This document shows positions 1 through 1,070 of a stretch of DNA of 1,070 nt, piece by piece. The DNA is from Naegleria gruberi (Eukaryota), in the NCBI GenBank assembly GCA_000004985.1, contig GG739583.1. One strand, given 5' to 3'. The notes under the pieces were generated by a model. The model was not told the origin of the DNA. It saw only the letters and a program-made list of their open reading frames with translations, and did no database searches. The position numbers and the translations under genes are program-made. Every line of letters starts with the position of its first letter. The first letter of the stretch is position 1.

Positions 1-1
1 C

Positions 2-253
2 TTCAACACTGAAGATGTTTCTCAACTTATCAAGAATGCTATATTCTCTGTTGATTCAGAAATCACTGTTTCTGGTCACAGTTTACGTATTGGTGCAACT
101 ACTGAGAGTATTATCAAGGGAATTCCTACTCAGGATATTATTATGGGGACTAGACATAAGGATGTGAAATCTTTACAACCTTATCAAAGACAAGAAGCTC
201 TTGTAGCTCGCCACTTGTCTACTACTCTCCTTTCTCAGGACAATATCCATTAG
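2..253 (+). CDS. Tyrosine recombinase (phage-integrase/Cre-like family). C-terminal catalytic fragment; the 5' end is truncated by the window edge. Stop codon TAG at 251-253.
   Basis: Frame 2 is open from the window edge and translates to FNTEDVSQLIKNAIFSVDSEITVSGHSLRIGATTESIIKGIPTQDIIMGTRHKDVKSLQPYQRQEALVARHLSTTLLSQDNIH*. It carries box I 'GHSLRIG' (His at codon 77-79, Arg at 86-88), box II His at 155-157 and the nucleophile Tyr at 182-184. The H/R/H/Y spacing (0, +3, +26, +35) equals the Cre spacing H289/R292/W315/Y324. About 22 residues follow the Tyr before the stop, as in Cre. GC is about 38% here versus about 26% downstream. Confidence 0.85.
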   Translation, partial: FNTEDVSQLIKNAIFSVDSEITVSGHSLRIGATTESIIKGIPTQDIIMGTRHKDVKSLQPYQRQEALVARHLSTTLLSQDNIH

Positions 254-285
254 TTTATTTATTGTTGGTTTTCTTTTAAGAAACA
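243..285 (+). repeat. 43-bp perfect direct repeat, copy 1 (atatccattagtttatttattgttggttttcttttaagaaaca). It overlaps the last three codons (I-H-stop) of the recombinase gene. Candidate recombination core or att-type site.
   Basis: All 43 positions are identical to 772-814. The boundaries are sharp: position 242 is a where 771 is t, and 286 is t where 815 is c. The copy contains the recurrent ATTAGTTTATT motif at 249-259. Confidence 0.9.
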
Positions 286-336
286 TGTTCTTATCGAAGT
301 TTACTGAGATAAAGTAGTGTTTCTTGAAAACAACAA

Positions 337-351
337 TTGAATAAACTAATA
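337..351 (-). repeat. Left arm of a 15-bp perfect inverted repeat (plus-strand ttgaataaactaata; reverse complement tattagtttattcaa).
   Basis: Its reverse complement is identical to 411-425. It contains the ATTAGTTTATT motif in inverted orientation. For a 15-mer inverted match the chance expectation in this window is about 0.01. Confidence 0.75.
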
Positions 352-354
352 GAA

Positions 355-380
355 AGTATGATCAAAAAAATTGTCATACT
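355..380. other. Hairpin with a 7-bp perfect stem (agtatga / tcatact) and a 12-nt A-rich loop (tcaaaaaaattg).
   Basis: 355-361 agtatga is the reverse complement of 374-380 tcatact. The stem is AT-rich with only 2 GC pairs, so it is weak as an RNA terminator. On the minus strand it is followed by uucuauu. Confidence 0.4.
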
Positions 381-385
381 ATAGT

Positions 386-402
386 CCCACCCTTGCCCAC
401 CC
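386..402 (-). other. Motif on the minus strand capable of forming a G-quadruplex (G4): GGGTGGGCAAGGGTGGG. On the plus strand it reads cccacccttgcccaccc, an i-motif candidate.
   Basis: Four G3 tracts with loops of 1, 3 and 1 nt satisfy the canonical G3+N1-7 pattern, and short loops favour a stable parallel G4. It is the only GC cluster in a stretch of about 26% GC. It sits inside the inverted-repeat-bounded segment next to the hairpin. Confidence 0.6.
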
Positions 403-410
403 TCTATTAT

Positions 411-425
411 TATTAGTTTATTCAA
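411..425 (+). repeat. Right arm of the 15-bp perfect inverted repeat (tattagtttattcaa).
   Basis: Identical to the reverse complement of 337-351. The two arms enclose a 59-bp segment (352-410) that contains a hairpin and the G-tract motif. Confidence 0.75.
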
Positions 426-429
426 ATCA

Positions 430-443
430 AAGGTTCTAACCTT
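430..443. promoter_or_regulatory. 14-bp palindrome aaggtt-ct-aacctt (6-bp arms, 2-bp centre). Candidate dimeric protein-binding site.
   Basis: aaggtt (430-435) is the exact reverse complement of aacctt (438-443). It lies 5 bp after the right inverted-repeat arm. Confidence 0.3.
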
Positions 444-662
444 TATCCTTAATACTTTGGAATGTGATTTTTTAACCAATCCTCAAATATTTTCTCAATT
501 GATTGAAAGATTTCACTCTATTTGTATTATTGAAAGATGATTGTTATCATCTTTTTATCTTTGTATTATTATTTGATATTTGACAACTTGGTTTATTGTC
601 AGATTGCTTTAATTTAGTTTAGTTTTTGCTTTTTGTTAAGAAATCATAGTATGATTGTATTG

Positions 663-675
663 ATTAGTTTATTTA
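663..675 (+). repeat. Additional direct copy of the recurrent motif (attagtttattta), matching 249-261 and 778-790.
   Basis: A 13/13 match to the 5' part of the 43-bp repeat. It lies 109 bp upstream of repeat copy 2. Confidence 0.6.
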
Positions 676-734
676 ATTTCTGGACCTGCTGAATAAAACA
701 TAATGCCTAAAAACAGCAGTAACCAGGCTACAAA

Positions 735-752
735 CTACCTAAGAATAGGTAG
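735..752. other. Perfect hairpin ctaccta-agaa-taggtag (7-bp stem, 4-nt loop). It overlaps the stop codon of the minus-strand ORF.
   Basis: 735-741 is the reverse complement of 746-752. On the minus strand it is followed by only UUUG, so it is not a convincing intrinsic terminator. Confidence 0.35.
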
Positions 753-1070
753 AAGTTGTAGTGTGAGCTTTATATCCATTAGTTTATTTATTGTTGGTTT
801 TCTTTTAAGAAACACAACGCCAAAACCAGAATAGTTCTCCAAAAGAAACAATAAAACAATCGTTGATAAACCAATAGGTAGAAGCTCACTCAATATATTC
901 CACATCCAAAAGGATGGTATATGTTGCTCAGAAATGCTGCTTTGAAGGTCATTGACTTTATTGAACATTGTCCCGAGTAAATAAGGTTGTTTACAAAATC
1001 GAGATTGAAGTAGAACAACTCCTATAAAAAACCTGCATTGCAGGAAAAAATTAGTAAAACTCAATCCATA
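735..1070 (-). CDS. Hypothetical small hydrophobic (possibly membrane) protein, at least 111 codons. The 5' end probably lies beyond the window, since the frame is still open at position 1070. Stop codon TAG at 737-735.
   Basis: The only long open frame outside the recombinase gene. An open run of 111 or more codons on a roughly 72% AT strand has about 1e-4 chance per frame. There is no competing plus-strand ORF. The predicted protein has hydrophobic stretches (LSELLPIGLSTIVLLFLLENYSGFGVVFL) followed by a basic tail (KRKPTINK). The listed 'M' start is really TTG at 1064-1062, so the true start is unknown. The codon composition (Phe/Leu-rich) also resembles antisense or AT-rich noise, so confidence is moderate. 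Confidence 0.4.
   Translation of the reverse strand, partial: YGLSFTNFFLQCRFFIGVVLLQSRFCKQPYLLGTMFNKVNDLQSSISEQHIPSFWMWNILSELLPIGLSTIVLLFLLENYSGFGVVFLKRKPTINKLMDIKLTLQLLPILR
744..755 (+). repeat. 12-bp direct repeat aataggtagaag, copy 1. The partner copy is at 873-884.
   Basis: The two exact 12-mers are 129 bp (43 codons) apart and bracket 43-bp repeat copy 2. Each has an adjacent 7-mer: gtgagct at 763-769 and agctcac at 883-889, which are mutually inverted. A 12-mer direct repeat alone is only weakly significant here (expectation about 0.3). Confidence 0.4.
772..814 (+). repeat. 43-bp perfect direct repeat, copy 2. It lies 529 bp downstream of copy 1, inside the minus-strand ORF.
   Basis: Identical to 243-285 over all 43 positions with unrelated flanks on both sides. 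It reproduces ...ATC CAT TAG of the recombinase 3' end. A chance match is negligible, even at this AT bias. Confidence 0.9.
873..884 (+). repeat. 12-bp direct repeat aataggtagaag, copy 2.
   Basis: Exact match to 744-755. It overlaps agctcac, the inverted partner of gtgagct at 763-769. Confidence 0.4.

Follow-up and report, generated by a model that had tools for sequence, protein, structure and literature searches.

Introduction

DIRS-order retrotransposons, which carry an RT/RNase H ORF and a tyrosine recombinase (YR) ORF in one element, are known with two terminal architectures. In PAT-like elements the ends are split direct repeats (A1...B1-A2-B2), the internal ones lying 3' of the YR gene (PMC4157794, PMC3266345). 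This A1-[ORFs]-B1-A2-B2 layout has been described several times (PMC4157794; PMC8547959; PMC9210276, with A of 236 bp and B of 152 bp), and the repeats of an element from Bodo saltans measure 83 bp (A) and 57 bp (B) (PMC6681497). SIRE combines the VIPER 5' portion with a private internal stretch and the 3' end, that is, the A2-B2 region (PMC6681497). DIRS1-like elements are defined by ITRs and an internal region (ICR) that is their near-exact inverse complement, and the ICR of DIRS-1 has been shown to be essential (PMC7192593). The site specificity of the YRs of eukaryotic retrotransposons is without experimental test (PMC7192593). By pol phylogeny, Piednoel et al. placed Naegleria gruberi with the DIRS1-like (ITR/ICR) and not the PAT-like elements (PMC3266345). 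The coding regions of Naegleria DIRS-type elements were counted in 2011, and no description of their ends was found in the accessible literature.

Here we analyse a stretch of 1,070 nucleotides from N. gruberi (contig GG739583.1), referred to below as the window. It is very probably the 3' end of a Naegleria DIRS-order element of about 4.0 kb with a split-direct-repeat or tandem A-X-B layout. The element adds to a known kind, and its B-A-B build is a known way for such elements. What had appeared to be a prokaryotic recombination cassette is reassigned to a eukaryotic (Naegleria) mobile element, and a first sketch of Naegleria DIRS-type termini is obtained: a 5' end whose first bases are TGTTCTTATCG, a 3' module of 43-50 nt starting from CCATTnGTTTAT, and a conserved palindromic joint between the two.

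The recombinase gene and its element

The window begins within the 3' end of a YR ORF (positions 1-253, plus strand), which was recognized from its translation, the Pfam Phage_integrase match being weak on this fragment. HSLRIG (H-x-x-R), TRH and SLQPY with the catalytic tyrosine are present, and the ORF closes with a TAG stop at 251-253. In a 15-sequence alignment the H, R and Y columns vary little or not at all, and ARPGE and GHKTD are found upstream. The closest proteins are those of Naegleria: the fragment is 96% identical to the N. gruberi predicted protein P0031 (XP_002679188), and 98% identical to P0047, the YR of the metagenomic element L009. Distant relatives end in ...NNTH* and P0031 in ...DNIH*. 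Since this C-terminus (N-I/T-H, then stop) is conserved, the TAG at 251-253 is the native stop; ciliate genetic codes, under which TAG would be read through, were rejected because the relatives keep both the C-terminus and the stop.

The nature of the whole element can be read from L009, a near-complete copy of 4.3 kb with gag, RT/RNase H/methyltransferase-like and YR genes, whose positions 3794-4185 align with window 1-389 at 98% over 392 nt. Its gag is 372 aa long, RVT_1 is matched with E=3e-26, a Dam-like match follows with E=8e-4, and the YR comes last. An RT ORF followed by an overlapping YR ORF is also present in four other loci (L003, L005, L006 and L008); RVT_1 was detected ahead of the YR in L005 and L006, while L003 has an RNase H-type region 5' of its YR and a Phage_integrase match of 38.9 bits against a cut-off of 27.1. 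Since the YR of the window is 98% identical to that of L009, which carries gag and RT/RNase H, the gene belongs to a DIRS-order retrotransposon: RT/RNase H and YR ORFs are found in one element, and the catalytic YR residues are in place. A Crypton, which has a YR without RT, was rejected in view of the RT ORF lying directly 5' of the YR with overlapping stop and start in these four loci and in L009. The methyltransferase-like similarity (PF05869) has E=1.9e-5 (24.8 bits) in L003 and E=7.8e-4 (19.6 bits) in L009, both below the gathering score of 28.1 bits. A Dam-like match described as "faint" is also among the precomputed matches of L006.

The 43-nt repeat

The 43-mer ATATCCATTAGTTTATTTATTGTTGGTTTTCTTTTAAGAAACA is present in two plus-strand copies at 243-285 (B1) and 772-814 (B2), with 0 mismatches and 529 nt from start to start. 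Two matches to it were found in 0 of 200 dinucleotide-preserving shuffles, even with 3 mismatches tolerated. The perfect repeats reported in the preliminary description are therefore real, and copy 1 does cover the last recombinase codons as stated there, the TAG stop lying inside it. B1 starts at the conserved motif CCATTnGTTTAT, which six families keep at the YR stop or after it.

The same description held the flanks of the two copies to be completely unrelated, which is right for the edges themselves but does not extend to everything that follows. The bases next to the repeats differ (a at 242 versus t at 771, t at 286 versus c at 815), and the upstream flanks align locally with a score of 22, no better than shuffles (22.7). 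The downstream flanks score 34 against 26.9 +/- 4.6, a weak excess that 29 of 300 shuffles reach. However, an inverted B-like segment follows each 43-mer, 28 nt on for copy 1 (314-356) and 16 nt on for copy 2 (831-879), so that both copies form left arms of imperfect palindromes. As for copy 2 lying in frame in a minus-strand ORF (735-1070), this carries no weight as evidence, because the ORF has zero homologues among 5.8 billion proteins. Its only Pfam match (MauE) is sub-threshold, and it was rejected as a gene: it is most likely spurious, in part an inverted 3' module of another element read as protein.

The ends of the element

In L009 an identical 43-mer (4036-4078) also overlaps the YR stop. 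The sequence that comes next in the window, A2 (286-389, plus strand), matches L009 4079-4185 at about 98%, and window 286-386 also matches L009 61-164 at 93%, immediately 5' of the gag ATG at 159. A2 is thus a copy of the 5'-terminal segment, running from the 5' UTR to the gag start. Within L009, 61-306 and 4079-4324 are direct repeats with 97% identity, 4018 nt apart. A1 and A2 copies are 93-97% identical, and at the gag-start position both A2 copies (window and L009) have ATA, versus ATG in the A1 of L009. Because the sequence following the 43-mer recurs at the 5' end of L009, position 285|286 is a joint between a 3' end and a 5' end, hereafter B|A. No B-like sequence was found in the 5' flank of L009. 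As A1 is preceded there by ordinary flank, A is the true left end of the full copy, and an insertion of L009 into a resident joint was rejected on the same ground. No terminal repeats were found within L003, L005, L006 and L008, whose contigs end 21-95 nt past the YR stop.

The boundary is seen again in a second family, that of L010, whose assembly is a 3980-nt unit, either closed or tandem, in which the YR stop, B, an inverted B' and then gag follow each other. Window 831-879 (minus strand) is an inverted 3'-terminal B module of this L010/P0028-like type, identical to L010 79-128 at 42 of 50 positions (E=1e-8); it lies tail-to-tail with B2 across a 16-nt spacer (815-830). Its homology breaks off at L010 127/128, the counterpart of window 285|286, and B accordingly has a terminal right edge in this family too. 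With an inverted L010-type B only 16 nt beyond B2, element ends are clustered around the window. Past 814 there is continuity neither with A nor with L009, and we read the right edge of B2 as the 3' end of an A-X-B unit or of the element.

The order in the window is therefore B1, A2 (104 nt), X (382 nt), B2. B1 would close the coding body and be joined directly to A2, and B2 would close a short A-X-B unit. The series ...YR-B1-A2(-X)-B2 probably corresponds to the A1-[ORFs]-B1-A2-B2 layout or, equivalently, to a short non-coding derivative joined head-to-tail to the full element. B1 and B2 agree at 43/43 positions and A2 resembles the A1 of L009 at 93% for 104 nt only, A1 and B2 never occurring in one copy. 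In L009, gag and not X follows A2, which shows that the family does not always carry the A-X-B unit. The whole layout is pieced together from the window (B1-A2-X-B2) and L009 (flank-A1...B1-A2-gag'), no single sequence having all of it.

A palindrome at the joint

A contains an imperfect inverted copy of B, called B' (314-356, plus strand), which pairs with B1 to form an imperfect hairpin or palindrome of about 100 nt (249-351, centred near 301). Self-BLAST of the window recovers a palindrome at 231-368 (E=1e-12, 68% self-complementary with gaps), and within it an ACA|TGT dyad falls at 285|286. The predicted fold of the hairpin has z=-5.4 as DNA and -5.0 as RNA; z is about -5 in both families (window and L010), versus -0.5 for A alone. 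The palindrome at the joint is conserved: L010 has an equivalent one of different sequence, with compensatory pairs at 7 of 38. A search of Rfam gave no meaningful match.

Since the 43-mer ends on its right in a joint of element ends, with the 5' end following in L009, this B|A joint is the most plausible site of YR action. It offers a concrete candidate substrate for the YR of a eukaryotic retrotransposon. Following the published models of DIRS, PAT and Ngaro elements, the internal B|A joint would duplicate the junction formed when the cDNA ends are joined, and would allow full-length circular DNA to be rebuilt from a transcript without complete ends. The YR would then cross over at or near ACA|TGT, inserting the circle without target duplication. 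If resident B|A joints can serve as substrates too, head-to-tail arrays and clustered ends would be expected to accumulate.

Alternative explanations

The repeats had been interpreted in the preliminary description as att-like crossover sites at which the YR would excise the 529-bp interval in circular form. Perfect, sharp-edged direct repeats beside a YR gene do resemble attL/attR of phage and ICE integrases, where crossover is expected in a short dyad such as ACA|TGT. Recombination between direct repeats is also thought to give the solo AB repeats of Cafeteria (PMC8547959), and a circle could arise as a by-product. However, the Naegleria repeats are the termini of a retroelement and not a duplicated host core, it is a reverse-transcribed copy that integrates, and the downstream flank of copy 1 is the 5' end of the element and not host sequence or attB. 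There is no tRNA in the window that might serve as a target, and a blastn search of phages and plasmids with the entire window gave no match. Patterns derived from the 43-mer and from A are absent from IMG/VR, GTDB (185,579 genomes) and JGI metagenomes, and recombinase-based locus searches in the same three collections returned nothing. With no phage, plasmid, GTDB or IMG/VR match, and with Naegleria proteins as the closest, a prokaryotic or viral origin was rejected. The att/attB framing of a prokaryotic-type integrative element fails for the same lack of matches and because the gene, that of a eukaryotic retrotransposon, stands behind gag and RT/RNase H/methyltransferase-like ORFs; the circle as a function is unsupported, as in L009 the 43-mer precedes a further gag-bearing copy and not a 529-bp cassette. 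We thus give hardly any credence to excision at att-like sites. Other parts of that description fared better. The repeats do belong to a mobile element encoding the adjacent YR, as L009 shares both; the view of the 43-mer as a functional recombination site survives, without its att framing, in the plausible role of the element-end joint; and the alternative it had offered, a remnant of a second tandem unit lacking an integrase, comes close to the A(104 nt)-X-B(43 nt) unit seen here. The sharp repeat boundaries are explained by the terminal architecture of the element (split repeats or head-to-tail joints) and not by duplicated att cores.

A DIRS1-type organization has more in its favour, yet we consider it very unlikely. 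The palindrome at 231-368 would then be the ICR (left part 243-300, right part 300-356), and copy 2 would lie in the right ITR. A 138-nt imperfect B1-A2 palindrome does come right after the YR ORF, as an ICR pair would, the published range being 85-130 bp (PMC3266345). Segment 314-364 is about 75% complementary, with gaps, to 764-818, and the pol phylogeny cited above groups N. gruberi sequences with DIRS1-like elements. In addition, the 11-mer ATTAGTTTATT, with 5 occurrences in the window versus 0.17 expected, is common to all repeat parts, as reported for DIRS1-like termini. But ICRs should be near-perfect inverse complements, whereas here it is the direct copies that are close (B1=B2 at 43/43, A2 at 93%) and the inverse ones reach 68% (231-368) to 75% (314-364/764-818), with gaps; moreover, the outer right terminus predicted by this model, the complement of 300-313, is missing after 818. 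An assembly artefact fusing repeat copies at a shared 43-mer, or a chance local duplication, is again extremely improbable. The element is multi-copy, the contig is short, chimeric assemblies readily arise where repeats abound, and X has no homologue. Against this, the 43-mer-to-A joint was assembled independently in L009, and the 43-mer stops on its right side where element ends were independently defined in L009 and the inverted L010-type copy. A de Bruijn assembler could also be expected to break at a 43-bp repeat unless reads longer than it supported the path.

Comparison with described architectures

On the split-repeat or tandem A-X-B reading, the PAT-like elements (Pat1, Toc, kangaroo) are similar in gene order, with gag, RT/RNase H, a methyltransferase-like domain (putative in Naegleria) and YR last, and in their split repeats, of which B1-A2-B2 would be represented in the window and A1 in L009. 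The Naegleria element differs from them in its B of only 43 nt that overlaps the YR stop, in the long imperfect palindrome at B|A, and in an A2 that corresponds to the 5' end for 104 nt only before an unrelated 382 nt. The likeness comes from layout and domains, whereas N. gruberi pol was typed as DIRS1-like (PMC3266345). The A1-[ORFs]-B1-A2-B2 layout is also that of VIPER and Ngaro, among which short repeats occur; SIRE of VIPER has the same make-up as window 286-814 (A of 104 nt, X of 382 nt, B of 43 nt). Unlike the Naegleria family with its weak Dam-like match, VIPER and Ngaro have no methyltransferase-like domain. DIRS1-like elements have the same gene set, a self-complementary, junction-type sequence immediately 3' of the ORFs in which the joined termini are mirrored, and a tendency to insert into resident copies, forming clusters. 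Their internal region is however an inverse complement, while that of Naegleria is a direct copy (B 100%, A 93%) that is 68-75% self-complementary.

The Naegleria elements might be a structural intermediate between the two architectures, a tentative idea that we think unlikely to hold. The joint would be both a direct copy of joined ends, as in the PAT/Ngaro type, and a long imperfect palindrome, and B1 would pair with the inverted B' located in the 5' end and B2 with the B' inside A2, in the manner of a DIRS1 ICR. This mixture of direct-repeat and palindromic character is relevant to the evolutionary passage between the two DIRS terminal architectures.

The filler segment

X (390-771, plus strand) is a filler of 382 nt without counterpart in L009, whose match to the window ends at 389-392, and as a whole it has no known homologue. 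It holds B-like fragments at 411-428 and 655-682, and at 552-634 (plus strand) a segment resembling the region just 3' of the YR stop in the sister family L001. The 20-mer ACAACTTGGTTTATTGTCAG (584-603) is identical to L001 659-678. By blastn, 23 nt match L001 at 96% and 84 nt at 67% (E=6e-5), and local alignment scores 53 versus 36.5 +/- 6.3 for shuffles. X was also considered as a decayed recombinase gene, which was rejected since alignments in three frames are no better than shuffles. The tblastx comparison of X with L001 gave a weak summed match, and it is the DNA similarity to the L001 post-stop region alone that stands. At the left edge of the filler, a G3N1G3N3G3N1G3 motif (GAGGGTGGGCAAGGGTGGGAC, 386-406, minus strand), read from the sequence, sits where A2 ceases to match L009.

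Terminal repeats and the recombinase gene

The 43-mer ATATCCATTAGTTTATTTATTGTTGGTTTTCTTTTAAGAAACA is present twice in the 1070-nt window, at 243-285 and 772-814, with 0 mismatches, as the preliminary description had claimed, and two such matches were found in none of the shuffles of the window. N. gruberi DNA is AT-rich, and the G+C content of the window is ~32%. The bases adjoining the two copies differ, and the immediate flanks align with scores at or near shuffle level. Copy 1 spans the last codons and the TAG stop of the ORF that enters from the left edge, so it was rightly placed over the recombinase end. The proposed link between repeat and recombinase is also correct: the 43-mer is part of the terminal repeats of a tyrosine-recombinase (YR) retrotransposon of eukaryotes, a system of a kind already known.

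The ORF (YR 3' end, 1-253) carries the H-x-x-R, H and Y motifs of a tyrosine recombinase, with a weak match to Pfam Phage_integrase. In alignments, the fragment is 96% identical to the N. gruberi protein P0031 (XP_002679188) and 98% identical to P0047, an ENA metagenome protein of the same cluster. Among 1.84 billion representatives, a profile search yielded few relatives, including full-length recombinases of ~300 aa, and a search seeded with one related protein, P0004, led to proteins of N. gruberi and N. fowleri. The 83-aa fragment, as query of a word-indexed protein search, retrieved only two proteins, both metagenomic, and not P0031 (96%), which was reached through the distant, full-length P0004. 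Because the YR C-terminus is conserved (...NNTH* or ...DNIH*), the TAG stop is native, and an alternative genetic code is not needed. By these protein matches, the source of the window is an N. gruberi-like amoeba, which agrees with the base composition. Window-like sequence was not found in phage/plasmid records, IMG/VR, one genome per GTDB species or JGI metagenome contigs, and no tRNA was found in the window.

In all relatives with upstream sequence, a reverse-transcriptase ORF lies upstream of the YR ORF, mostly overlapping it. In L009, a 4324-nt metagenomic copy of the same family as the window, this ORF matches RVT_1 (E 3e-26). The related locus L003 has an RNase H-type region, and Dam-like matches in L003 (E 1.9e-5) and L009 (E 7.8e-4) are both under the Pfam cut-off. 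A gag-sized ORF comes first in L009 and in L010, a P0028-like relative. These genes together are the set that characterises YR retrotransposons of the DIRS order. Seven DIRS1-like sequences had already been counted in N. gruberi by Piednoel et al., whose Table 3 of annotated termini contains no Naegleria element (PMC3266345).

Element ends

Window 1-389 aligns with L009 3794-4185 (98%), the L009 43-mer being at 4036-4078. The sequence directly 3' of copy 1 (286-386) also matches L009 61-164 (93%), the untranslated 5' leader, which stops at the gag ATG (159). Within L009, 61-306 and 4079-4324 are direct repeats (97%, spacing 4018 nt), and the 60 nt preceding position 61 have no resemblance to any B module (defined below). 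From these matches and this flank, the element runs from a 5'-terminal segment A, starting TGTTCTTATCG, to the 3'-terminal 43-nt module B, ending ...AAGAAACA, so that 285|286 is a joint between a 3' end and a 5' end. The boundary falls on the dyad of ACA|TGT, and the element ends, as read from the sequence, are short imperfect inverted repeats (TGTTCTT / AAGAAACA).

The first B copy (B1, 243-285) is followed by a second A (A2, 286-389) that contains B', an inverted imperfect copy of B (314-356), then by a filler X (390-771) and by B2 (772-814). The gag ATG of the 5' A copy (L009 159-161) is ATA in L009 4177-4179 and window 381-383, and the two A2 copies share further variants. Because of these common features, A2-type copies look like a lineage of their own, probably not homogenised with A1 every cycle.

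Neither L009 nor any other sequence has a counterpart of X, which contains several B-like fragments; its stretch 552-634 resembles the post-stop region of a sister family, L001: the 20-mer ACAACTTGGTTTATTGTCAG (584-603) is identical to L001 659-678, 20 nt after the L001 YR stop, whereas the coding regions of window and L001 have only ~76% identity. A decayed recombinase gene in X is unsupported. On the minus strand, GAGGGTGGGCAAGGGTGGGAC (386-406) is a canonical four-tract G-quadruplex motif in surroundings of 25-32% G+C, placed exactly where the window-L009 match ends (389-392).

A 16-nt spacer (815-830) separates B2 from an inverted, L010-type B module (831-879, minus strand), 42/50 identical (84%) to L010 79-128 (E 1e-8). 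The homology ends at L010 127/128, the position aligned with window 285|286. Since the inverted B of a different family lies next to copy 2, the window is a cluster of element ends from three or more families (window, L001 and L010 types). The right edge of B thus acts as a terminus in three settings: in B2, in the inverted B of the other family, and opposite the left edge of L009 A1, with which it pairs up. No homologue was found for the minus-strand ORF across copy 2, some of which is just a translation of the inverted B module.

Architecture and proposed mechanism

With A at the 5' end, the order ...YR-B1-A2-B2 forms a predicted split direct repeat structure, A1-[ORFs]-B1-A2-B2. Such repeats define PAT-like, Ngaro and VIPER elements, and published sizes lie between A 83 / B 57 bp and A 381 / B 294 bp (PMC4157794, PMC8547959, PMC9210276, PMC6681497). 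A canonical DIRS1-type ITR/ICR structure fails, as exact matches occur in direct orientation and inverse matches are no better than 68-75%. The two 43-mers had been proposed as att-like sites from which a 529-bp circle could be excised. This reading fails in the context of a eukaryotic YR retrotransposon, but a deletion between the repeats could arise as a side reaction, and such recombination has been proposed as the origin of solo AB repeats in Cafeteria (PMC8547959). A chimeric assembly is unlikely: L009, an independent assembly, has the same B|A joint, and element ends in other sequences fall at the same boundaries.

Window 286-814 is composed of 104 nt of 5' end, 382 private nt and 43 nt of 3' end. 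SIRE, a short relative of VIPER, likewise combines an A2-B2 region with a private insert (PMC6681497). Because L009 A2 continues into gag, not X, we favour the reading that the window holds a full element head-to-tail with a short non-coding A-X-B unit. Less favoured is A-X-B as a tail that all copies share without change; both readings describe variants of a single architecture.

By analogy with published DIRS models, an incomplete transcript would suffice for rebuilding a complete circular DNA, because the joined ends are also copied internally; the corresponding internal region of DIRS-1 proved essential (PMC7192593). The YR would then put the circle in at the junction, and resident joints would be identical substrates. 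This would explain both the head-to-tail arrays (L009, L010, L006/L007) and the three-family cluster of ends within 1 kb. DIRS-1 also piles into existing copies, a parallel to the ends clustered here (PMC7192593).

Joints in other families

L010 has a perfect 127-nt terminal overlap (1-127 and 3981-4107) in a k=127 assembly, and so represents a 3980-nt template that is either closed or tandem. Tandem arrays in the genome, or extrachromosomal circles in the amoebae that were sampled, could account for this. Its order is YR stop, B-like module, 31-nt spacer, inverted B', conserved ATGCTCAAAAAAATT box and gag ATG. In L006 (3646-3740) and L007 (2462-2556), the YR is truncated (267 aa, without the catalytic C-terminus) and a gag-like ORF starts 18 nt beyond it, an arrangement that resembles a head-to-tail joint from which B and A have been lost.

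B1 and the start of A2 (231-368) form an imperfect palindrome (self-BLAST, E 1e-12). The joint hairpin of ~100 nt has z=-5.4 when folded as DNA and z=-5.0 when folded as RNA; a similar fold forms from a different sequence at the L010 joint (z=-5.4 and -6.2), and A1 without B does not fold (z=-0.5). In 7/38 pairs both sides have changed between families with pairing kept, a suggestive sign of conserved joint pairing from two independent sequences only. The palindrome could be an RNA/cDNA hairpin, or a pair of inverted arms to which the recombinase binds.

In six families the B module starts with the motif CCCATTnGT(T)TAT, which overlaps the last codons or follows the stop. Five copies of the 11-mer ATTAGTTTATT are present in the window (249-259, 340-350 on the minus strand, 412-422, 663-673 and 778-788) against 0.17 expected, and the related opening motif closely follows the YR stop in L003, L005, L008 and L010. 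That the opening motif is kept in either position points to a cis-acting DNA or RNA element, not protein constraint. The motif is a candidate recombinase-binding or priming element.

The novelty is limited to details of the families: the B module is very short and overlaps the stop codon, the joint has a palindrome that Naegleria families conserve, and the A-X-B unit resembles SIRE. It is doubtful that the split-direct-repeat and ITR/ICR architectures have their missing intermediate in this direct-and-palindromic joint (PMC4157794). Two decayed sister-family copies were seen in metagenome assemblies: L002 (ERZ4903137) has lost the HSLRIG region by internal deletion, and L004 (ERZ27254754) has unrelated sequence after IIKG, evidence that dead copies are probably numerous.
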